Shown here: positions 11,703 to 37,914 of the stretch, one piece after another
Layout of the letters: every line of letters begins with the position of its first letter
Numbering within the stretch: position 1 is the stretch's first letter
Assembly (NCBI GenBank): GCA_021787205.1
Contig: JAJYME010000007.1
Span: 74,334 to 138,333, forward strand
DNA length: 64,000 nucleotides
DNA from: a bacterium
GTDB taxonomy: Bacteria; Patescibacteriota; Minisyncoccia; UBA6257; Colwellbacteraceae
Reading direction: 5' to 3'
Notes under the pieces: generated by a model
What the model saw: only the letters and a program-made list of their open reading frames with translations
Database searches by the model: none
Told to the model about the DNA's origin: nothing
Position numbers and translations under genes: made by a program

Positions 11703-12650
11703 TTATAAGTTTAACTCAGCTTCCACTAATTCATCAAGCTGGCCATTCAAAACATCGTCGACTTTTGATGTTTCATATTCCGTCCTGTGATCCTTGACCA
11801 TCTTGTAGGGATGGAGGACATAGGAACGGATTTGATGTCCCCATTCAATCGAAACTTTTGTTTTTAAATTAGAAATTTCAGTTTCCTGTTTTTCCTTCAT
11901 CAACTTCAAAAGCCTCGCCTTCAAAATATTCATCGCTATTTCCCTATTCTGTGACTGACCCCTCTCAACCGAGGAGGTAGCAGTCAGCCCGGTGGGAATG
12001 TGGGTAACCTTGACCACCGTTTCAACCTTGTTGGCGTTCTGTCCGCCCGGACCTGACGATCTGTTGAAATCAACCTTGATGTCCTTTTCCGGAATCTCAA
12101 TATCGGTTTTGATTTTTCCCAAATCAGGCAAGACTTCAACCAAAGCAAAGGAAGTGTGACGCAAGCCCTTGGAATCGTAGGGAGAGATCCTGACCAGACG
12201 ATGAACGCCCGATTCGTTCTTGAGAATGTTATAGGCGTCCTCCCCTTTTATCTCTATCGTATCATCATCGATCATCCTCGTTTTCCAACCGCGCCTTGCC
12301 GCATACAATCCATACATCTTCATCAGCATTCCGCCCCAATCGGCCGCATCCTCGCCGCCAGCTCCAGGGTAAACCGAGATCAAAGCCGGGAGATTCTCGT
12401 ATTCGTTCTTCGGCATATACTCCGCCTCAAAGGCCCTAGCCTCTTCCGCGTTCGTGATGCTTTCAAAATCGGTCACGAGATTCTTAAGCTTTCCGTATTC
12501 CTTGGTCTTCTCCTCCGCCTCAAAACGGTTCTTCGTCCAAAGATCCGGATTGGAGACCTCGAATTCAAGCTCCTTGAGCCTAGTCTTATTTTTTTCAATT
12601 TCAAACCTTTCACCTAGGTTTTTTAAGATAAAATCCAAATCTTCAGTCAT
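11703..12650 (-). CDS. prfB: peptide chain release factor 2; contiguous ORF with no programmed frameshift visible
   Basis: SPY(F) motif RISPYDSKGLRHTSF, GGQ motif SSGPGGQNANK and an RF2-like C-terminus. The N-terminus MTEDLDFILKNLGERFEIE... is in frame with no internal TGA. Confidence 0.9.
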   Translation of the reverse strand: MTEDLDFILKNLGERFEIEKNKTRLKELEFEVSNPDLWTKNRFEAEEKTKEYGKLKNLVTDFESITNAEEARAFEAEYMPKNEYENLPALISVYPGAGGEDAADWGGMLMKMYGLYAARRGWKTRMIDDDTIEIKGEDAYNILKNESGVHRLVRISPYDSKGLRHTSFALVEVLPDLGKIKTDIEIPEKDIKVDFNRSSGPGGQNANKVETVVKVTHIPTGLTATSSVERGQSQNREIAMNILKARLLKLMKEKQETEISNLKTKVSIEWGHQIRSYVLHPYKMVKDHRTEYETSKVDDVLNGQLDELVEAELNL

Positions 12651-21327: not shown

Positions 21328-22755
21328 TTATATTTCCATTTTCTTTTTTTGTTCGTCTCTTTTCTTTTTAAGAAGGAAGAAGATAACGCCGACCGACACG
21401 ATAGCTGCAAAGCCGGCCAATAACCAATAAGGAGAAAAAACTTTCTTCCGACTTATTTCAAAATCAGCAAAGAATGTATCCTCGACATTTTGATTGTAGA
21501 GAGTCTTAAGTCTTAGTCTGTATTTTCCGGGCGCCAACTCGCCGGCATCGAAGAATCTTTTAATAAAGACTGCTTCGGTTTGAACCGTGGTCGAATCAGA
21601 ACCGCTCCAAACCTCTTCGCCTCCAGCGTTGATAATGGCAAATTCCATATTGATTGGAGTCGGAAGACGACCAAAACTGGTGAACATGACTCTCGCTACC
21701 AAGTCGCTAGCTTTGGAAACGGCGCCGCTATCCAACAAAAGCCTGATATCGAACAACTGGGCAGGCTGAGCCTCTTCTGGCGCCGGGGCGGGAGTCGGAG
21801 CGGGAGAAACCGCAGTCGGGACAATGCCGGGAGCGGGGGTGGGAGCAAGAGCAACGCCGGGAGCTGGAGTTGATGGAGCTGCCGGAGCAGGCTGGGCATA
21901 ATCAATCGAATTCGAAATCGTATCGGAACACGAGCCCCACTGTGTGCAGAACTTGGCATAGACAGTCTTCCTGCCAAAATCACCAGGCAATACCCAAGGC
22001 ACGGTAACGGAGGCGGATTCCCGATCGTATCTTATCTGGGAAGGGGTAGCCATATTGGCATCATTTGAAAGCCAGACCAGGTCAGTATTCCCATTGCCTA
22101 AGAGGGTCAGGGCCGTATTGACCGAAGCGGTCACTGGGGCGCCGTTATTTATCAAGACGTTAAAGCCGCCAGGCGGAGTGATGATCCCCTGTGGCGGAAC
22201 AACGCCTCCAGAGATTCCACCTCCTCCACCGCCGCCACCACCGCCACCACCGCCAACGGCTCGATAGCTTATCGGCCGAAAATCGGTCATGACATTACAA
22301 TTTGCGCAACTGAAATTAATCGTACCGACATTATCACCAATAGCCTGACCAATAAATCTGCCGGCAGAATTAATCAAAACACCGGAGAAATTAACCCAAC
22401 CGACGTTCGAACCCCAGGCAAATCCGGAAAGATTGCCGCTCGAGTCGACTCTAATACCGCCATTTGATGGCGATAAGCCGATCCAACCGGAATTGGAATT
22501 CCAGACATACCCGGTCAGGCCGCTATCTGTAATTCTCACGTTGCCGTTCGCGACCCTGAAATTAATCCAGCCAACCTTGCTACCCCAAGCATAACCGTCA
22601 TTGACAGTATTAGTCACGATCGTACCATTAGTTTCACTCGCCATTACGGTAAATGAAGTAAAGGTGAAAACAGCCAAGAGACCAACGCTGAAAATAAAGA
22701 GAAAACGTTTTTTAATTTTTAATCTTTCTTTCATCTGTCTTTTTTGAAATATCAC
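21328..22755 (-). CDS. cell-surface repeat protein paralog with a poly-Gly tract and a Pro/Ala-rich linker
   Basis: Same GW repeats and C-terminal domain as 20309..21268, plus G14 (encoded around 22215-22256) and an APAAPSTPAPGVALAPTPAPG... linker; C-terminal TM. Confidence 0.6.
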   Translation of the reverse strand: MIFQKRQMKERLKIKKRFLFIFSVGLLAVFTFTSFTVMASETNGTIVTNTVNDGYAWGSKVGWINFRVANGNVRITDSGLTGYVWNSNSGWIGLSPSNGGIRVDSSGNLSGFAWGSNVGWVNFSGVLINSAGRFIGQAIGDNVGTINFSCANCNVMTDFRPISYRAVGGGGGGGGGGGGGISGGVVPPQGIITPPGGFNVLINNGAPVTASVNTALTLLGNGNTDLVWLSNDANMATPSQIRYDRESASVTVPWVLPGDFGRKTVYAKFCTQWGSCSDTISNSIDYAQPAPAAPSTPAPGVALAPTPAPGIVPTAVSPAPTPAPAPEEAQPAQLFDIRLLLDSGAVSKASDLVARVMFTSFGRLPTPINMEFAIINAGGEEVWSGSDSTTVQTEAVFIKRFFDAGELAPGKYRLRLKTLYNQNVEDTFFADFEISRKKVFSPYWLLAGFAAIVSVGVIFFLLKKKRDEQKKKMEI

Positions 22756-22776: not shown

Positions 22777-25700
22777 TTAATTGCTGCCAGCCGCCTCACC
22801 TTGCGGCTGAGGAACGACAGGATCAATATTCTCGACCGGCGATGTTGATGGGATAACCTCGGGTAATGGGGTCGGCTCCGGAGCAATTTGAGATTCGCCT
22901 TCTGATAAGGTCCCCGATTCCGAAGGTTCAACCGGGCTGGTTTCTGACTCCGGCCCGGGGTTATCGGCTTCGCTAGGCTGCGGAAAATCCAGTTTTTCCT
23001 CCACTATTGGCGCATCAGATGAGGAAGATTCGACAACTCCTGATTCCGGCGGAGTGGCACTCTCCTCGGTTACACTAGGCGCTGAAGAAACAGGGACGAC
23101 GGGTGAAGCCGGCTGATCAAATTCAAAGAGTTTCTCTCTCTGGGCAAATGCATGCCAGAGAATCTTTACGTCGTTTTGAGGAATATATCCCTCACCGAAG
23201 GAGACGGAGAATCCGATCTTGGTGATGTCTTTTACGTACACAGGAGCATACTCTTTAAAGGAGGTAGCGGTGATGATTGGGAAAAAGTCGTAAGCACTCG
23301 AGAAGGAAACGCTGGCAGATGTTTCTCCGGCTCTCACAATTACCTCTCCAACAGAATCCTTATCAAGAGTGACATGTCCCCCGATAGAAATGGCGCCGGA
23401 AACGACCAAATCATTCAAGTCAGACTGAGAAACACCTGGGACGTTTAATGAAGCGATCTGGCTCTGCAAACTATTGATTTCAAGTTGCTGCTCATTGATA
23501 GCATTCACAAGAATCGGCGCCAGATGGGAATAAGCTATTCCCTTATATCCATCTTTATCCGTCGAGACGATTTCAGGGACGACCTGCTCCATCTTTTGAG
23601 CGCTAAACCCTATTTGAGGCGCAGAACCTCCGATAACGTTGTACCTTATCCCTTCCATTCTGGATACAAGACTCAGGGCATTATCGATCTTTGTGATGTT
23701 CTCCTTAAACCTCTCATCGGAAGAACTTTGCCAAGCTCCAAATTCATCGACATAACCATAGTTGCTCTTTTCCCCGACTTGGAACCTGTAAGACGATGTC
23801 TTCGTCCCGATTCCTATCTTTGAAGCTACCAAACCGTCGGTCGAAATGCTTGCGGAATAAATCCGAGCAATGGCCGATTCTGGCAAGATGGTCATATTGT
23901 TGTCCCGATAAAAAGTAAACTTATCGACTGCATCATAAGGTACCTCGGTCTTAACGCCGTTAAATAAATCTAAGCCGTCAACCAGTTGGTCATTAAAATT
24001 ATATTGAGTAATGGCATCGGGATTCGAGATGCTGCGAGTTTCTATTCTTGCAATCGGACTATCATCTTGCCAGGCCCGAATATAATCAAGATCGATTTGT
24101 CTGGAACCGGTAGTCTCAGTATGCATATTATACAAGGCCACGCCTAAATCCGCCGTCGGCCCGGCGCCAGAGACGGTTCCGCAATCGGTAAAATTAATAC
24201 CATCCGAGACGTCATAATCCATCAAGAATCTTACCGAAGTCGAGCTTTCGACTTGGATCCTTCCTAAGGCGAAAGCGGTGGTGCTGATTGTCCCAGAGCA
24301 GGTGACCGTACCAACGGTCGAGCCAGCGCTGCGGACAACTCCCACCCAGGAGGCATCATTGTTAGTCCAGAAGAAGATTCCGTTATTAGGCAGGGCATCA
24401 TTGGCTACCGGCGCCGCCGTCGCCCTATCCATCAGCCCCCAGACAATATCGTTGGTTGCATTGGTGACGTTAGTCCTGACTTTCATCTGGACGACCGGCA
24501 ATGAGGCTTTGGAGAAAATAGAGCTTAAGGCATTTCCGGCGGCACCAAAACCGATCAGAGCGCCAGTGTTGCTAGTCGTGCCGAAAGTCAGCCTGGCGAA
24601 GCCGCCGATACCGTCAAACGCCGTATAGGAAACGTTGTTGGAGGTGGTGTCAAAATACATCTGACCATTATCACCAATAACAGCGTTATCTGCCGTAATA
24701 GCGTTGGACGTATCGGCATTGAATTCCTCCGAAAAATAGGAGTTATTCCCAAAGAAACCGCCGGATTCAACTAACCCTCCGAAGACTTGGGTTCTGTTTT
24801 GAATCTTGAGGACGGAATAAGGAGTTACTCCATCAGAAGAGAAATCCAAGCCGTTGGGAATATAAACAGTGCTTCCATTCAGAGTAACAGTATCGGTTGA
24901 AGCGTTGCCAAGGATAGAATTTCCATTGACGGACAGGTCGTTATTGAATGTCTTATTACCGCCAAAAGTCTGGGTTGCGGCCGAAGTCAGGCCGGGATTG
25001 GTGATATCCGCCAGAGAGAGAGTGAGCACATTACTGGAAATTGAACCGCCGTTAGCGCTTGAACCGCTTGGAGTCGCAAGAGAAGTGATTATATTCGATC
25101 CGCCGGAAATCTTTGTGATGGCGATTCCTGCCGAACTATTGATGTCGGCGTCCATTATCGTCCCATTCAGAATCTTCGCAGAAGTAATCGCATCATTAGA
25201 GATAGTTAGAGCGCCAGTGTTGGAGAGGGTGGCGTCATTGGAAATTGAGACTGCGGCGGCGGTATTCGAGCCATTACCCACCCAGATCAAGCCGCTGTTT
25301 AAGGCAGTCCCTAATTTATTATTGAAAGTGCTCCAATCGGTGGAGGTGAGCGCTCCGCGAGCGGTCGCGGAAGCACTTGGAATATTGAAGGTATGTGTCG
25401 TTCCAGCGGAACTGATACCAAAATCCATTCCGGCAGTACCCGTGGCAAAAGTCTGGGTCGTCCCGGTCAGTCCGTTCAAAGACGTAATGCCCGAACCAGG
25501 CGAACCAAGAGCAGACCAACCAGTATTCACACTGTCGGTTGCCTTTACATACAAAACCCCATTAGCAGTATCGAGGGCAAGAGAACCCATGTCGGCAGAA
25601 ATATTTCCCTCCGGAGTGCCGGCCCTATTGTAAATACCAAAAGAATCAGTGCCATCACTGAAGTTAAGCCATTGTCCGGCAGAAGTCCTTGTAAACTTCG

Positions 25701-26034
25701 GCAAACCGGCGCCTGTGATGGCTAGCGTCAAATCGTTTCCACCAAGAGTGACTGAAGTTCCAGCATCGACAGTGAGAGCGTCGGCTAACTTTGTGAAATC
25801 AAGCGAATCATCAGTCAAGGCGATGGTGACTCCGGCATTCTCCGTGCCTGAGTTTGCAATGGTAAAGATGTTTTGTCCGCTGTCAGCAAGCGTAGCAACA
25901 TAATTGCCGGTGGTGTCAGCGCCAAGGGCGACAGCATTGCTGCCTATGGTTAAAGCCCCAGTATTACTTATCGTCGCATCACCCGACAAGGCGACACCGG
26001 TCGCGACATTAGATATGTTACCCACAAAAATCAA
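22777..26034 (-). CDS. large tail-fibre-like surface protein with beta-helix-type repeats and a phage-type intramolecular chaperone (peptidase S74-like) domain; probably the downstream part of a gene split by a frameshift from 26043..26837
   Basis: Recurrent G(A/L)LTSTDWSTFNNKLG / TGALTI repeats. SSDERFKENITKI...GIRYNV...GFSAQKMEQVVPEIV matches the SD.R.K.NI consensus of endosialidase/tail-spike C-terminal chaperone domains. About 300 further residues (Pro/Glu/Ser-rich) follow the domain. The track start TTG at 26034 is in frame with upstream coding sequence. Confidence 0.7.
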   Translation of the reverse strand: MIFVGNISNVATGVALSGDATISNTGALTIGSNAVALGADTTGNYVATLADSGQNIFTIANSGTENAGVTIALTDDSLDFTKLADALTVDAGTSVTLGGNDLTLAITGAGLPKFTRTSAGQWLNFSDGTDSFGIYNRAGTPEGNISADMGSLALDTANGVLYVKATDSVNTGWSALGSPGSGITSLNGLTGTTQTFATGTAGMDFGISSAGTTHTFNIPSASATARGALTSTDWSTFNNKLGTALNSGLIWVGNGSNTAAAVSISNDATLSNTGALTISNDAITSAKILNGTIMDADINSSAGIAITKISGGSNIITSLATPSGSSANGGSISSNVLTLSLADITNPGLTSAATQTFGGNKTFNNDLSVNGNSILGNASTDTVTLNGSTVYIPNGLDFSSDGVTPYSVLKIQNRTQVFGGLVESGGFFGNNSYFSEEFNADTSNAITADNAVIGDNGQMYFDTTSNNVSYTAFDGIGGFARLTFGTTSNTGALIGFGAAGNALSSIFSKASLPVVQMKVRTNVTNATNDIVWGLMDRATAAPVANDALPNNGIFFWTNNDASWVGVVRSAGSTVGTVTCSGTISTTAFALGRIQVESSTSVRFLMDYDVSDGINFTDCGTVSGAGPTADLGVALYNMHTETTGSRQIDLDYIRAWQDDSPIARIETRSISNPDAITQYNFNDQLVDGLDLFNGVKTEVPYDAVDKFTFYRDNNMTILPESAIARIYSASISTDGLVASKIGIGTKTSSYRFQVGEKSNYGYVDEFGAWQSSSDERFKENITKIDNALSLVSRMEGIRYNVIGGSAPQIGFSAQKMEQVVPEIVSTDKDGYKGIAYSHLAPILVNAINEQQLEINSLQSQIASLNVPGVSQSDLNDLVVSGAISIGGHVTLDKDSVGEVIVRAGETSASVSFSSAYDFFPIITATSFKEYAPVYVKDITKIGFSVSFGEGYIPQNDVKILWHAFAQREKLFEFDQPASPVVPVSSAPSVTEESATPPESGVVESSSSDAPIVEEKLDFPQPSEADNPGPESETSPVEPSESGTLSEGESQIAPEPTPLPEVIPSTSPVENIDPVVPQPQGEAAGSN

Positions 26035-26042
26035 TCCGCTGT

Positions 26043-26837
26043 TTAAGGCGGTCCCAATTTATTATTGAAGGTGCTCCAATCGGTTGAGGAGAGATAGCCG
26101 TTTGCCGTGCTGCTTGAAGCGCCGATCGAGAAGATCCCAGTCAGGGAGTCGTAAGAAAGCGGACTGGAAGCGGAAACGGCGCCACGGGCAAGAGTGTTCG
26201 AGAAGTACTTGTTGGTCGCTCCCTCCGTCAGGTTGTCGGTCGTCTTGCTGGAGAACCCGGTGTTGAACCTGGTCGTAGTGTAATAAAGATTGGTGTTCTC
26301 CGGAACAACCGAGGTGTCGAGAGTCTGCCAAGTCTTGTCGCCGCGATAATACTGGGCGGATGTTCCAGATGAGATCGCATTCTCCTTGCCGTTGAAGGTG
26401 CTCCAATCAGCCGAAGTCAACAATCCCCGATTAGCAGACGAGGCGCTGGGAAGGTTGAAAGTATGGACTCCTAGGGCTGAAGAAATCGTAAAATCAGTCC
26501 CAGTTGTCGAGGTCGCAAAAGTCTGGCTTCCATCCAAAAGACCGTTTATCGACAGAATTCCGCCGGAACCAGAGACTGCACCTCCATTCCAATATAAGAT
26601 CCCGCCAAGATTATAGAGCCTGTCGGTAGCCGGGGAGGGCGGGGTGGAAAGGCTAGCGAGATTCAAGTTGGAAAATATGTTTGCCACCACATTGCAATTA
26701 GAGTCTGTCGGTTGACAGCCCGGATCAGAAGTCTCTCCAGGAATGAAAGTAGCGTAAACGGGCTTTGATAAAATGGAGAATAAAGCGATTAAGGTGAGCG
26801 AAAGAAAAATATATTTTTTAATCAGTAGTTGTCTCAT
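26043..26837 (-). CDS. signal-peptide-bearing N-terminal fragment of the tail-fibre-like protein (shares the ..DWSTFN.K repeat motif with the large ORF)
   Basis: Signal peptide MRQLLIKKYIFLSLTLIALFSILSKPVYA. It ends ...YLSSTDWSTFNNKLGPP* where the intact internal repeat in the large ORF reads ...STDWSTFNNKLGTALNSGLIWVGN. A single missing A (AAATTGGGACCGCC versus AAATTAGGGACTGCC) shifts the frame. Confidence 0.6.
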   Translation of the reverse strand: MRQLLIKKYIFLSLTLIALFSILSKPVYATFIPGETSDPGCQPTDSNCNVVANIFSNLNLASLSTPPSPATDRLYNLGGILYWNGGAVSGSGGILSINGLLDGSQTFATSTTGTDFTISSALGVHTFNLPSASSANRGLLTSADWSTFNGKENAISSGTSAQYYRGDKTWQTLDTSVVPENTNLYYTTTRFNTGFSSKTTDNLTEGATNKYFSNTLARGAVSASSPLSYDSLTGIFSIGASSSTANGYLSSTDWSTFNNKLGPP

Positions 26838-26908: not shown

Positions 26909-26918
26909 TATTATAACA
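26909..26918 (-). promoter_or_regulatory. extended -10 (TGTTATAAT) candidate promoter for the surface-protein operon
   Basis: Minus strand TTGTTATAATAATC about 80 nt upstream of the start at 26837; no clear -35. Confidence 0.35.
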
Positions 26919-26950
26919 AAATAAGCTCGCTTGGGCAAAGACTTTTGTGG

Positions 26951-34220: not shown

Positions 34221-34940
34221 TTATCTCTTTACCAAGACGATTCTTCCATTTTTTTGGAGCATATTGCCAAAGGTAGCAAAATTATTATTGACGCTTCCAT
34301 CGCCAATCGCGTAGGCGATTTGAGCCTTGACGGGAATCTCCATCGGTCTTGCAGCGACAACGTAAGTCAGGATATTCTCTCCGGCCGAGAGTGGCGTATA
34401 AATATCACCAGAAAGATCGGTCTTTATGCCGGAAGCAGCGCTCGACATACCGACGTAGATTGATCTCGTGTAAGCCGATTGGTTCAAATCAACCTCCTTA
34501 GCCCAATTAAAAACCTGGGAGACACCGCCAATGACCGTGCATTCACCAGTCGTATAAACCTTGGTATTGTCAACCAAGCCGTTAAAAGTAAGAAAAACCG
34601 TATCCTTGCCCTCGATATTGGCAGCTTCTTCTTTTATCTCAATGGTATTGCCGTTCAAAACAAGGTCGACGGAGGGAAAAAGAAAGGCTTTTTTCCCTGA
34701 TTGGGTTTCGCTCGCAAGCAAAGCTTCCGCCTCTGGCTGGGTCATATAGGTGAAGTACTTATCGATGTCAGCCTGAGTCTTCAAGATGATTTCTTTGCTC
34801 GCGACAGCCTGCTTTACGCTGCCTCGATTCATAATCGGAGACTTAAGAACAAAGTAAACTCCAGTGCCGACAGCCAGCAGGACAAAGATGCCGATGACAG
34901 CGCTTATTATTTTTTTGTTGTCGAGATTATCTTTCTTCAT
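34221..34940 (-). CDS. membrane-anchored hypothetical protein adjacent to the pilin cluster
   Basis: N-terminal TM (IISAVIGIFVLLAVGTGVYFVL) and an extracytoplasmic body. Confidence 0.5.
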   Translation of the reverse strand: MKKDNLDNKKIISAVIGIFVLLAVGTGVYFVLKSPIMNRGSVKQAVASKEIILKTQADIDKYFTYMTQPEAEALLASETQSGKKAFLFPSVDLVLNGNTIEIKEEAANIEGKDTVFLTFNGLVDNTKVYTTGECTVIGGVSQVFNWAKEVDLNQSAYTRSIYVGMSSAASGIKTDLSGDIYTPLSAGENILTYVVAARPMEIPVKAQIAYAIGDGSVNNNFATFGNMLQKNGRIVLVKR

Positions 34941-34973
34941 ATTTGATTTATTATAATACTTTTCAAGCTTTTA

Positions 34974-35381
34974 TTAAATTGTTTTCTTTGTGAATCGGAT
35001 ATCAAGAACCCTGGTCGTCTTCCCATTATCGTTGGCGCCCGTTGATGACCAGTCGTCATACATCGGCTGGGAATCAGTCCTTTTGAAACTGAAGCTTCCC
35101 TTCTCGGTAGTTTTTACCACACTGCTGCTCCCGACAATTTGCGGGCAGTAGCCGGAAACGGCGTCATAAGAGGCGTGTCCGAACTCATTAAAGAGAACGC
35201 ACTCTATGCCTGTATCAGCAATAAAGATCGCGTCCATCGTCTGATCGGAGCTGGAGAGATTCCTGAATCCGGAAAGGACAAGAAAGGTGCCAAGAGCCGC
35301 AGCGCCCAAGGCGGCCACCGAAAGCAAGACCACCATCATGACCATCGTCTGTCCGGATATCGATTTTTTGTTTTTTATCAT
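34974..35381 (-). CDS. pilin-like / minor pseudopilin candidate
   Basis: KKSISGQTMVMMVVLLSVAALGAA hydrophobic N-terminus after a Gly, but no canonical Glu5. Confidence 0.45.
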   Translation of the reverse strand: MIKNKKSISGQTMVMMVVLLSVAALGAAALGTFLVLSGFRNLSSSDQTMDAIFIADTGIECVLFNEFGHASYDAVSGYCPQIVGSSSVVKTTEKGSFSFKRTDSQPMYDDWSSTGANDNGKTTRVLDIRFTKKTI

Positions 35382-35905
35382 AACTTCTTGTAATAAATAA
35401 GCCTCGCGCTGATTGTCGTTTGCGCCCTTTCCAAAACTACGCCTTGACCATTCTTGACTACGATATTAACCACCACTCTCGGCGTCGTCTTATTGCCGCC
35501 GCCACTGTTGTCAGTGACCATAAACCAGCCCTCAGTCGTCAATTCGCTAGTGGTTAATGGATAATCGTTGGTGTCATTGACTATTTTATTGAGTCTTCCG
35601 GCGTTGAATTGATAAGTAATTTTCTCGCCCTTGTAATTGATGAAAGAAAAGCTGTCGACGGCGGAGTAGCTGGGATTAACGCTGTTTAAGAAATCCTTGC
35701 CCGTTCTCACCTCTCTCGCCAATTGTTCCATGACGGTGCTCACATTATCAATGGCAGCCGATTTTTGAGCTGTCAGCTTTGAAGTCTTAATGATCTGGAC
35801 AAAGATAGTGGTTGAAATAACCGTCACTAAGGTAAACAACGACAAAGAGATCATAAGCTCCATAAGGGTAAAACCCTTGATATTAGATTTTTTAATCATC
35901 GCCAA
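35378..35905 (-). CDS. type IV pilin-like / pseudopilin with prepilin N-methylation motif
   Basis: KGFTLMELMISLSLFTLV, the classic G/FTLxE prepilin peptidase site plus hydrophobic helix. Confidence 0.75.
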   Translation of the reverse strand: MAMIKKSNIKGFTLMELMISLSLFTLVTVISTTIFVQIIKTSKLTAQKSAAIDNVSTVMEQLAREVRTGKDFLNSVNPSYSAVDSFSFINYKGEKITYQFNAGRLNKIVNDTNDYPLTTSELTTEGWFMVTDNSGGGNKTTPRVVVNIVVKNGQGVVLERAQTTISARLIYYKKL

Positions 35906-36510
35906 TTGAATAAATAAGTTTCCGTCTTAACTGTCTGCCAGTTTCCCCTTCTGTCTGGCCAGGTGACATAAGAGACCAATCTCAAAGCATTCCCAGAGCT
36001 GACAGATTCGACCCCAACCGCCCTTTTGAATTTGCTTGAAACATTGCTCCCTCCCGTAGCATAACTGTAAAGTCCGCTTACCTTATCATAATTAAGAAAA
36101 GTCATCCCGTTCCTTTCCGCAGAGCTGATTCCATCCGAAGGATCAAAGTTGCCAGGATTAGAGATTCTCTTGCCGCTCGTATTCACGTCCTTGTAATCAA
36201 GCTGGTAATAGTTGCCCACGACCTGAAAATCGGCGTTCCAGTTGGCGCCGTAAGGATCGGACCTAGTGACGGCGTTTCTCAAGCTGCGGCCATCAACGAT
36301 ATTCTTGGCAACCTCTATTCCTTCGGCCGCCAGAAAGGTAGCCGTCGCCCTGTCGCCGACTATTTCCATCCTTCCAAGTGAGGAAACCACGGCACCCAAC
36401 ATGCCTATGACGCCAAAGGTCAGGAGAAGGATAGCGATTACCGCCTCATTAAGGGTTTGTCCTCGCTGCCAATAAATCCTGTCATTTTTTTTATCAAATA
36501 TTCCCTTCAT
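35896..36510 (-). CDS. minor pilin / pseudopilin
   Basis: RGQTLNEAVIAILLLTFGVIGM has the G-x4-E motif with Glu at +5. Confidence 0.65.
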   Translation of the reverse strand: MKGIFDKKNDRIYWQRGQTLNEAVIAILLLTFGVIGMLGAVVSSLGRMEIVGDRATATFLAAEGIEVAKNIVDGRSLRNAVTRSDPYGANWNADFQVVGNYYQLDYKDVNTSGKRISNPGNFDPSDGISSAERNGMTFLNYDKVSGLYSYATGGSNVSSKFKRAVGVESVSSGNALRLVSYVTWPDRRGNWQTVKTETYLFNWR

Positions 36511-36514
36511 TTAT

Positions 36515-37129
36515 TTATTTTTGAACAGCGTCAATCAAGCCGTATTTATTCAAGATTATTTTCTTTGTCTTTTGAGGGCTCCTTTTCGAATAAACCCCGA
36601 TAGCGACATCGGAATTAATGACACTCCCACCCTTGGAAAAAGTCGCCGTCGGATCGGGAGGAGTATAAACAATGCTGGTCGCGCAAGATCCCGCGGTGAA
36701 ATTGGAGTCCATATTGGCCCAGTTAGCTCCATAAAAACAAGCCAAATCGATTCCCGATTCCCCGACGAAAGTATCAGTAGAAGTGTTTAATAACTGGTCG
36801 GCTACATCATAGCGTCCGACACTGCCTCCCGAAGCGCAACTCCCGCCCGATTGCTTATCTATAAAGATAGTCGCCTTGCGGGAAGCGGTATCGATATAGA
36901 CCCCATATCCGCAGAAGGCGCCGTTTGCAGAAACGCTGTTCATTGCCAGAGTCTTGGCTCGAAAGAAAAGGCTTCTAAGCTTTTCGTGCTGGATAGAGAG
37001 CGACAAGTTTTCATTCCTGGCTTTGGTCGAAAGACCGGCAATGGCCACGATGACTGAGATGATCAGAATAACCATCATCATTTCAATCAAAGTAAATCCC
37101 CCGATTATCCCCTTCTTGTTTTGCCTCAT
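36515..37129 (-). CDS. type IV pilin (major pilin candidate)
   Basis: GGFTLIEMMMVILIISVIVAIAG canonical prepilin leader and N-terminal helix; start placed at the internal Met (37129). Confidence 0.8.
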   Translation of the reverse strand: MRQNKKGIIGGFTLIEMMMVILIISVIVAIAGLSTKARNENLSLSIQHEKLRSLFFRAKTLAMNSVSANGAFCGYGVYIDTASRKATIFIDKQSGGSCASGGSVGRYDVADQLLNTSTDTFVGESGIDLACFYGANWANMDSNFTAGSCATSIVYTPPDPTATFSKGGSVINSDVAIGVYSKRSPQKTKKIILNKYGLIDAVQK

Positions 37130-37203
37130 TGGAATAATTATAACCCAAAACGGGGAAAGACAAAAAAACAACATGAGTTAACATGTTGTTTTTTTGCATT
37201 CAG

Positions 37204-37914
37204 TTATTTGCTAAGGTCAGAAATGATTTGTTGGACTCTCTCCTTGGGATAAGCTCCATCAATGGTTCCTTTAGCCTCGCCATTCACGACGACGACCGCA
37301 AAAGGAGTTCCTTGAAGCCCGGATTCCTGGCCATTCGCGGCTTGCTCCTTGATTTTCTGATCATAAGAAGCCTTGTCGCAAGAGGAGATATTGGCACCGG
37401 ACTTGGAAGCGACAGCCGCAAGATCGATCTTAGCACCTTCTGATTTGTCATAGGCAGCGAAGGTATTGTCGACAAACTTCCAATAAGCGCTGTCTCCGCC
37501 CTTGGCATAGACACACTCAGCCGATTCGGCGGCTTCTTGAGCTTGGGGATGGAACGGCAGAGGGAAATAGCGGAGGACTAATGCGATCTCGCCATTTGAC
37601 TCATCAACAATGTTCTTGATAATCGGATGGAACTTCGAGCAATAAGGGCATTCGAGGTCAGTGTAAGCGACAACTTTAATCTTGGCCTTCTTGTTGCCAT
37701 AGATATGGTCTTGAGAGGTAATCTTGGCAACGTTCAGATAGGCCTTGCTCTCAGGTTGCTGGCCCTGCTGCTGATCCTGTGGCTGACCTTGTTGCTGATT
37801 GCCCGCAACGTTGTTCCCCTTATTAGCGTACAAAACGGCGGCGCCCACCAAAGCTCCCGCGATAATGATCGAAATGGGAACTAAAAGTTTCTCTAATTTC
37901 AATGAATCCTTCAT
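37204..37914 (-). CDS. DsbA-family thiol:disulfide oxidoreductase
   Basis: N-terminal anchor, Q-rich linker, CPYC active site in a thioredoxin fold. Confidence 0.75.
   Translation of the reverse strand: MKDSLKLEKLLVPISIIIAGALVGAAVLYANKGNNVAGNQQQGQPQDQQQGQQPESKAYLNVAKITSQDHIYGNKKAKIKVVAYTDLECPYCSKFHPIIKNIVDESNGEIALVLRYFPLPFHPQAQEAAESAECVYAKGGDSAYWKFVDNTFAAYDKSEGAKIDLAAVASKSGANISSCDKASYDQKIKEQAANGQESGLQGTPFAVVVVNGEAKGTIDGAYPKERVQQIISDLSK

Follow-up and report, generated by a model that had tools for sequence, protein, structure and literature searches.

A probable recent one-nucleotide knock-out of a large secreted fibre gene in a Colwellbacteraceae chromosome

The DNA analyzed here, called the window below, is a 64,000-nucleotide (nt) stretch of a Colwellbacteraceae genome (contig JAJYME010000007.1 of assembly GCA_021787205.1, positions 74,334 to 138,333). 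On its minus strand, two annotated "hypothetical proteins" lie end to end in different reading frames (Table 1). The upstream open reading frame (ORF) starts at an ATG and encodes 264 amino acids (aa); according to the ORF listing and the translation, it ends ...STDWSTFNNKLGPP / ...GYLSSTDWSTFNNKLGPP. The downstream ORF is in the -1 frame relative to the first and runs for 1,085 aa from a TTG at 26034, although the NCBI annotation starts it at a GTG at 26025, giving 1,082 aa. At the junction the -1 frame reads ...IGTALNSGLIFVGNISNVATGV..., open into the large ORF and free of stops down to 22777. Inserting one base after AAATT joins the two into a protein of 1,353 aa with no internal stop, which reads FNNKLGTALNSGLIFVGN across the junction. 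An earlier note on this DNA had proposed as much, namely a single gene split by a 1-nt frameshift, whose repair would yield a protein of about 1,350 aa with a signal peptide. Both proposals hold: the frames are as claimed, the site is in frame in a sister strain, and the signal peptide can be recognized by eye. The two annotated proteins should be read as one interrupted gene.

The restored protein has the layout of a large secreted fibre. Its N terminus shows, by eye, the basic n-region, hydrophobic core and VYA cleavage-type site of a Sec-type signal peptide, and equivalent N termini are found in its orthologs and homologs. A Cys motif near the N terminus, PGETSDPGCQPTDSNCNV, is common to the window protein and three intact homologs (P0002, P0006 and P0008), whose architecture is the same overall, with a signal peptide, the Cys motif at the N terminus, modules and an S74 domain. 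The modules of the window protein are repeated around the motif [ST]xDWSTFNxK. Its central domain was found by homology search in only a handful of proteins, and the predicted structure of that domain (mean predicted local distance difference test score, pLDDT, of 42.6) was too poor for a fold search. The downstream ORF matches the Peptidase_S74 family with 42.8 bits against a cut-off of 22. The domain opens with SSS-D-E-R-F-K-ENI, in which the Ser and the Lys five residues on are both present; this pair is the catalytic motif defined in work on endosialidases. Ten PHROG families with tail fibre or baseplate annotation match residues 695-866 (E values down to 1.3e-22), with tail-fibre C termini matching residues 745-864 of the downstream ORF, and the long tail fiber distal subunit PDB 6f45 matches with an E value of 5e-4. 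After the S74 domain come about 220 extra residues, including a further domain, plus an acidic, proline-rich tail.

As the earlier note had claimed, the break falls inside a repeated module. The copy that bears it (copy 1) and a second copy, intact in the window (copy 2), align over 77 columns, of which 68 are identical, 8 are mismatched and one is a 1-nt gap, giving about 88% identity. A repeat search gave a 41-nt core shared by the copies at 90%, and the exact identity between them is only about 14 nt long. The similarity is far above chance, although calling the repeat near-identical was an overstatement. It reflects a duplicated protein module, DWSTFNNKLGTALNSGLI[FW]VGN. With the base restored, the junction reads DWSTFNNKL-GTALNSGLIFVGN, and the pattern DWxxFNxK[LIV]...[LI]....[ILV].[VIL]GN is found unbroken in 20 of the 120 best homologs, 57 times in all, and at one further place inside the window gene. 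Homolog P0002 goes on ...FNNKLTSTLSSGQIFVGNISNVATGVAMSGDATLDNAGVLTIGANTVALGADTTGNYVA, parallel to the window protein across the break. Judged from these sequences, the restored junction is a conserved, contiguous module boundary. Mutagenesis of the diversity-generating retroelement type was considered and rejected for these copies, whose differences are not adenine-specific.

At first inspection, the missing base looks like an A, since copy 2 has TTAGGG where copy 1 has TTGGG; the window alone cannot decide this. The closest allele that is intact at copy 1 belongs to a strain variant, L003, found by protein-cluster look-up (ENA ERZ27237050, contig k141_1050903; product P0123), and it has TTGGGGACC at the site. 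Because L003 reads AAATTGGGGACC, in frame, the window has lost its base from a short G run. The simplest description is thus the loss of one G from a run of four, leaving the G3 at 26053-26055, and the lost base need not be the A named in the earlier note. The L003 product reads NNKLGTALNSGLIFVGN here, exactly as the restoration predicted.

Over 10,980 aligned columns, L003 is 98.56% identical to the window, with 155 substitutions and only two indel events, both of them in the fibre gene; about 7 kb of flanking genes contain no other indel. The first event is the one at copy 1. The second lies in copy 2, where the window has TTAGGGACTGCC and L003 has TTA--GACTACC, a 2-nt deletion in the paralogous G run accompanied by a G-to-A change, which divides the L003 gene into ORFs of 520 and 837 aa. 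Tract lengths in the window and L003 are G3 and G4 at copy 1 and G3 and G1 at copy 2, and the frame is changed in both cases. Each strain thus has a broken gene, and the two different lesions occupy equivalent positions in two repeat copies. Within the 11-kb region there are 570 homopolymer runs of at least 3 nt, 189 of them in the gene (G5 twice, A6, and T5 five times among them); no run in the gene exceeds 6 nt, and the one of that length is unchanged between the two strains. If indels were uniform over runs of at least 3 nt, the chance that the second would fall in the paralog of the first would be about 1/570 to 1/189 (0.002-0.005). Substitutions are not significantly clustered around the indel sites (P 0.16-0.76), and no donor copy of the L003 lesion (TTAGACTACC) was found elsewhere in the window, in L003 or in the sister-species locus described next. 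Column 44 of the motif reads C,C,T in the three copies of the window and T,T,T in L003, which hints at gene conversion among the copies as a possible source of local indels; the hint is weak after multiple testing.

A third lineage is broken at yet another place. The syntenic ortholog of a sister species (P0001, locus L002; ENA ERZ13693050 NODE_665), at 60% identity, has no shift at the window's frameshift site, and the Gly codon is absent from its junction (FNSKLSSTLADG). It carries instead an in-frame TAG in place of the Gln codon of TSQYYRGDK (CAG to TAG, codon 160, L002 7932-7934). The stops of the other 15 called genes in the locus are 13 TAA and 2 TGA, with no TAG. At L002 7455-8003 the TAG leaves a 159-aa ORF with a signal peptide, followed by a remainder of 1,120 aa. 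This 159-aa ORF is present on 12 contigs, and the ENA assemblies among those shown come from at least 5 samples. Selection after the TAG arose is not measurable because L002 and the four contigs set against it share 99.96-100% identity wherever they align. The split point thus lies at residue 264 in the window, 520 in L003 and 159 in the sister species, and no split at the same position as in the window was found in related genomes.

Selection on the gene was followed in the restored frame, in which 61 synonymous and 13 nonsynonymous changes separate the window from L003. The ratio of nonsynonymous to synonymous substitution rates (dN/dS) is 0.11 for the segment preceding copy 1, 0.07 for the one separating the two copies and 0.05 for the one beyond copy 2, next to 0.04 for SecA. 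The whole gene was strongly constrained for nearly all the time since the two strains split, and each lesion is recent or reversible, because dN/dS is low over the whole restored frame. Ratios of 0.05-0.11 in all three segments, with a single lesion per allele, are not those of a decaying pseudogene. Of the three options offered in the earlier note (an error, a pseudogenizing mutation or an on/off slip), a genuine mutation is favored; the idea of a fixed pseudogene does not fit.

These results lead us to a reading to which we give a probability of roughly 60%: a genuine, recent 1-nt knock-out of a selected secreted surface-fibre gene, one of several independent knock-outs. A 1-nt deletion at the DNA level, from G4 to G3, would have struck a module junction of a single fibre gene of about 1,353 aa. 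The exported product would be cut to 264 residues, without the C-terminal S74 chaperone, and the remaining 1,082-1,085 codons would lack a signal peptide. S74 fibres need their C-terminal chaperone for folding. Because the exported 264 aa lack this chaperone and the remainder lacks a signal peptide, the fibre would effectively be OFF in the window strain. The lesion is probably young, and it is one of at least three independent, lineage-specific knock-outs of the ortholog: the G-run deletion at copy 1 in the window, the G-run deletion at copy 2 in the 98.6%-identical L003, and the CAG-to-TAG nonsense mutation in the sister species. What the sequences show is the lesion and its reproducibility, the intact allele, the parallel lesions and the purifying selection; the truncated products are presumably non-functional, and the recurrence may reflect selection for losing or varying the fibre combined with a locally indel-prone repeat motif. 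For the shared position of the two strain-specific indels, the candidates are a repeat-associated hotspot or a selective filter for clean truncation at module boundaries.

Several other explanations have to be set against this one. Gene callers annotate two ORFs, and candidate TTG and GTG starts lie 9-18 nt past the stop of the upstream ORF, so that termination-reinitiation is conceivable; the locus might then hold two real genes, the first for a small secreted protein and the second for a large product that is cytoplasmic or arises by re-initiation. This is scarcely credible for a junction that cuts a conserved module, that L003 reads through, and that is replaced by a different split point in every lineage. 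Moreover, no promoter-like or terminator-like site was found at the junction by promoter and terminator search, nor any clear ribosome-binding motif by eye, and the downstream product has no signal peptide yet contains a domain characteristic of fibres outside the cell. One might naturally suspect that sequencing, assembly or polishing went wrong in the repeat and that the real gene is intact, since the region does break assemblies. Contig L007 (GCA_021843935.1 JAKBUK010000027.1), at 4849-4952, passes from the ACCGATTGGAGCACTTTCAAC of motif copy 1 into the stretch that lies beyond motif copy 0; its end is a chimeric join, which shows that the repeats break short-read assemblies. Contig L010 starts in the repeat; L010, L019 and L020 end at or near repeats or the gene (L019 and L020 right after secA); and low-coverage assemblies of the sister species have other split genes. 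However, the identical G3 deletion was returned by a different assembler working on single runs (L010, a Logan contig of run SRR13201255, recorded in 2 samples), and the G3 allele is also on 5-6 NCBI/ENA contigs. A stretch of about 14 identical nt is not long enough to lead a k-mer assembler into dropping 1 nt, and the flanking genes have no other indels relative to L003. A copy-to-copy assembly chimera was rejected as the source of the indel, as no path between the copies gives TTGGGACC. On this evidence, which consists of assembled contigs, an artefact is unlikely, and the error option offered earlier is disfavored as improbable. We rate slightly lower, as very improbable, the idea that the split is only apparent and that ribosomes still make full-length protein by slipping -1 at G_GGA, where tRNA-Gly would shift its pairing from GGA to GGG ahead of the TAA. 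Such a single-tRNA slip is chemically possible in the 16 nt between the -1-frame TAA and the 0-frame TAA, and purifying selection continues. Some lineages of the candidate phyla radiation reportedly lack ribosomal protein bL9, whose loss raises frameshifting. Against recoding, the overlap (A AAT TGG GAC CGC CTT AA) has no slippery X XXY YYZ heptamer, leaving only the single-tRNA G_GGA slip, which might act at a low level, and no downstream RNA fold beats shuffled sequence (z -0.41, -1.62, +0.17 and -0.63; the first is -19.8 kcal/mol against a shuffle mean of -18.5). A search for Rfam families in the window returned tRNAs only. The site is not conserved as a frameshift site, L003 being in frame and the L002 ortholog unshifted there, so no frameshift signal can have evolved in it. 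Recoding would also require a -1 shift in the window, a +1 shift in L003 and stop read-through in the sister species, an implausible set of three different events.

The explanation closest to a recent knock-out is a reversible on/off switch, or contingency locus, in which every module junction would have a site-specific indel hotspot in the short G run behind its conserved AATAAATT motif, so that Gs gained or lost in any copy would toggle the fibre in a population. We consider this unlikely, though well above the other alternatives. It accounts for the placing of the two indels, the only ones that separate the 98.6%-identical strains, in paralogous G runs of copy 1 and copy 2, and for strong purifying selection despite the lesions, as if alleles revert; a surface protein with a signal peptide is a fitting target, and tract length does differ between these close strains so as to change the frame. 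TTG GGG in copy 1 of L003 against TTA GGG in copy 2 fits deletion followed by reinsertion, and equally a plain synonymous change, and the column 44 pattern hints at gene conversion. Known slippage tracts are usually 7 nt or more. Here the tracts, G3/G4 and G3/G1, are far below such lengths, with no long homopolymer of about 7 nt or more and no multi-unit repeat, and longer runs in the gene are unchanged. The L003 lesion is a 2-nt loss (G3 to G1) with a nearby G-to-A change rather than a slip that could simply be reversed; in the sister species the break is a nonsense codon at another place, and the junction has no Gly codon at all; no ON allele was seen on the background of the window strain; and the column 44 hint is weak for the reason given above. 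A more specific form, in which the AATAAATT-linked G run at each junction is a site-specific indel hotspot, perhaps through gene conversion or template switching between copies, making a multi-site fibre switch, seems somewhat less likely again. The earlier suggestion of an on/off slip within a repeated module thus has circumstantial backing, in a sister strain broken at the matching site of the other copy, and stands unproven. Several observations nevertheless weigh against the recent knock-out that we prefer. Two indels at the same 3-4-nt G run of two copies are unlikely under uniform mutation (the 1/570 to 1/189 given above), and because of this paralogous coincidence plain, random recent knock-outs would need an added hotspot or selective filter; the longer runs in the gene, G5 twice, A6 and T5 five times, were left unhit. 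Very low dN/dS is equally expected if broken alleles are still expressed or often revert. Support for G3 is at the assembly level, and the supporting assemblies may come from related samples of one study rather than from independent populations.

Compared with phage tail fibres and endosialidase-type tailspikes (e.g., PDB 6f45), the window protein is alike in its C-terminal S74 domain with the Ser...Lys motif (SDERFK), in the long, modular, repetitive region before it, and in some modules shared with IMG/VR viral contigs at 25-57% identity. It differs in its Sec-type signal peptide, in the roughly 220 extra residues and the acidic, proline-rich tail after S74, and in its place on the chromosome, in the secA-lepA interval and away from any phage genes. 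Scans of viral contigs yielded no close ortholog: a DNA pattern had no match there, and a protein scan gave only distant module and S74 matches. The label "tail-fibre-like" is therefore apt at the domain level (Peptidase_S74, the PHROG C termini and some modules) and not for a phage gene. In the Bartonella henselae adhesin BadA, strain-specific frameshifts lie in different domains, 2 of 8 strains show no expression, and repeat-driven recombination is suspected (PMC8859334). Like the window gene, BadA is a large modular surface fibre with repeated domains, frameshifted in different domains in different strains, and in both repeat-driven recombination is suspected. Unlike it, BadA is a trimeric autotransporter of a cultured pathogen, of another protein family and export route, and in our case the window and L003 lesions sit at homologous positions of two repeat copies. 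As in homopolymer-tract phase variation, close strains differ in tract length, and with it the frame of a gene for a surface protein shifts; unlike there, no more than 3-4 nt make up the tract, and one of the lesions removes 2 nt next to a substitution. A frameshifted surface-protein gene is an ordinary kind of event, and what is less ordinary is the parallel lesions at paralogous sites together with the strong constraint.

Large secreted proteins resembling phage fibres are among the few candidates for cell contact by these tiny, probably host-dependent bacteria. That every checkable lineage has a fresh break of its own, yet the gene is constrained as secA is, suggests a fibre that is useful but costly. 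The cost might come from a role as phage receptor or recognition target, in which case the fibre would be lost or toggled repeatedly in natural populations. If the hotspot switch were true, it would amount to on/off control of an attachment fibre without a long simple-sequence repeat, and ON/OFF cycling would keep purifying selection strong. Split calls in such repeat-rich genes should not be written off automatically as assembly errors.

Table 1. Features of the interrupted fibre gene in the window
Feature	Coordinates	Strand	Basis
Whole gene as intact reading, 1,353-aa secreted modular fibre protein	22777..26837	-	One-base restoration; intact junction in L003/P0123; homolog architecture
Upstream ORF, 264-aa N-terminal fragment ending LGPP*	26043..26837	-	ORF listing; exact product on 5 contigs
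Part coding for the putative signal peptide (MRQLLIKKYIFLSLTLIALFSILSKPVYA/TF cleavage)	26751..26837	-	Reading of the translation by eye
Promoter-like site upstream of the ATG, TTGCCC-17-TATAAT with TG extension	26910..26938	-	Consensus match only
Frameshift site: G3 run with one base missing; intact allele G4	26053..26055	-	Window AAATT-GGGACC versus L003 AAATTGGGGACC; G3 also in L010
Premature TAA stop produced by the frameshift	26043..26045	-	Translation
Downstream ORF, -1 frame, without signal peptide	22777..26034	-	ORF listing, translation, NCBI call
Peptidase_S74 intramolecular-chaperone domain, starting at SDERFKENI	23566..23721	-	Pfam PF13884, E 6.6e-11, ORF residues 772-823
Repeat copy 1, module junction ...STDWSTFNNKL/GTALNSGLIFVGN, bears the deletion	26018..26093	-	Alignment
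Repeat copy 2, intact in the window, reads ...STDWSTFNNKLGTALNSGLIWVGN	25274..25350	-	Alignment
Copy 2 G3 run, intact in the window; 2-nt deletion in L003 (TTA--GACTACC)	25309..25311	-	Alignment with L003
Motif copy 0, DWSTFNGK then alternative ENAISSGT... continuation	26385..26408	-	Motif search

The surroundings are those of a chromosome. The window carries pheS, a UvrD/PD-(D/E)XK helicase-nuclease gene, ftsEX, prfB, pyrG, lepA, secA, gatCA, ligA, alaS, topA and eight tRNAs, and it is identical to part of a 497-kb NCBI contig, DAHWOP010000007.1 of GCA_027339325.1. Upstream neighbors of the fibre gene are ligA, gatC/gatA, hpf and secA; it lies directly downstream of secA and is followed by four hypothetical proteins, with no match in Pfam, NCBIfam or PHROGs, and then by lepA. 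No phage genes were found near it, the location is not that of a phage or prophage gene, and the fibre gene is chromosomal. The sister species shows the same secA-lepA synteny around the gene, and one locus in synteny carries the label Saccharibacteria. Source names of homologs include Falkowbacteria, Moraniibacteriota, CPR3, Parcubacteria and Nomurabacteria, and also Bdellovibrionales, Chitinophagales and Saprospiraceae; by these names the uncultured bacterium probably belongs to the CPR/Patescibacteria.

Further alleles were sought in several collections. A scan of genome contigs with the central domain gave no more alleles or orthologs, a genome-contig scan with the 468-aa neighbor of the fibre gene gave one locus, with only the 3' end of the gene, and metagenome contigs, searched by DNA pattern and by neighbor, gave no further allele. 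The gene of the sister species (L002 8001-8970) contains a tandem unit of about 110 aa (...YYTTARFNASLATKTTDNL...DWSTFNNKENQITAGTTSQYYRGDK...), with 3, 2 or 1 copies in different assemblies (P0001, P0127 and P0126; 1,120, 1,010 and 907 aa), a difference due either to true variation in copy number or to the collapse of short reads. L012 (ENA ERZ27247703 k141_841289), which is a more distant homolog, has a beta-helix, pectate-lyase-like region and then the same central domain, and is split into overlapping ORFs at 37..2490 and 2447..4219. To judge from the reading LLNADS / NRFFGLVVNRSSGTGIGV, one A may have been inserted near 2428-2430 (region 2414-2490).

The 468-aa neighbor lies immediately downstream of the fibre gene (21328-22755, minus strand) and is a conserved, secreted hypothetical protein, with 51% identity in the sister species and about 56% in a Saccharibacteria-labelled metagenome-assembled genome, and with no family match in Pfam, NCBIfam or PHROGs. 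It has a run of 13 Gly codons at 22217-22255, (CCN)13 on the plus strand, of the same length in L003, and repeats of the GYAWGSKVGW type. Elsewhere in the window, prfB (release factor 2, TIGR00020, E 1.4e-97; 11703-12650, minus strand), examined as a possible positive control for programmed frameshifting, consists of one ORF of 315 aa with a short N terminus and no sign of the usual CUU UGA C +1 site; that the gene is present fits a reading of UGA as a stop codon here. Upstream of ligA, at 34221-37914 on the minus strand (L004 1-3623), a cluster of small genes with N_methyl (prepilin-type) signals stands beside a thioredoxin/DsbA-like gene and may be a pseudopilin or type IV pilus-related set.

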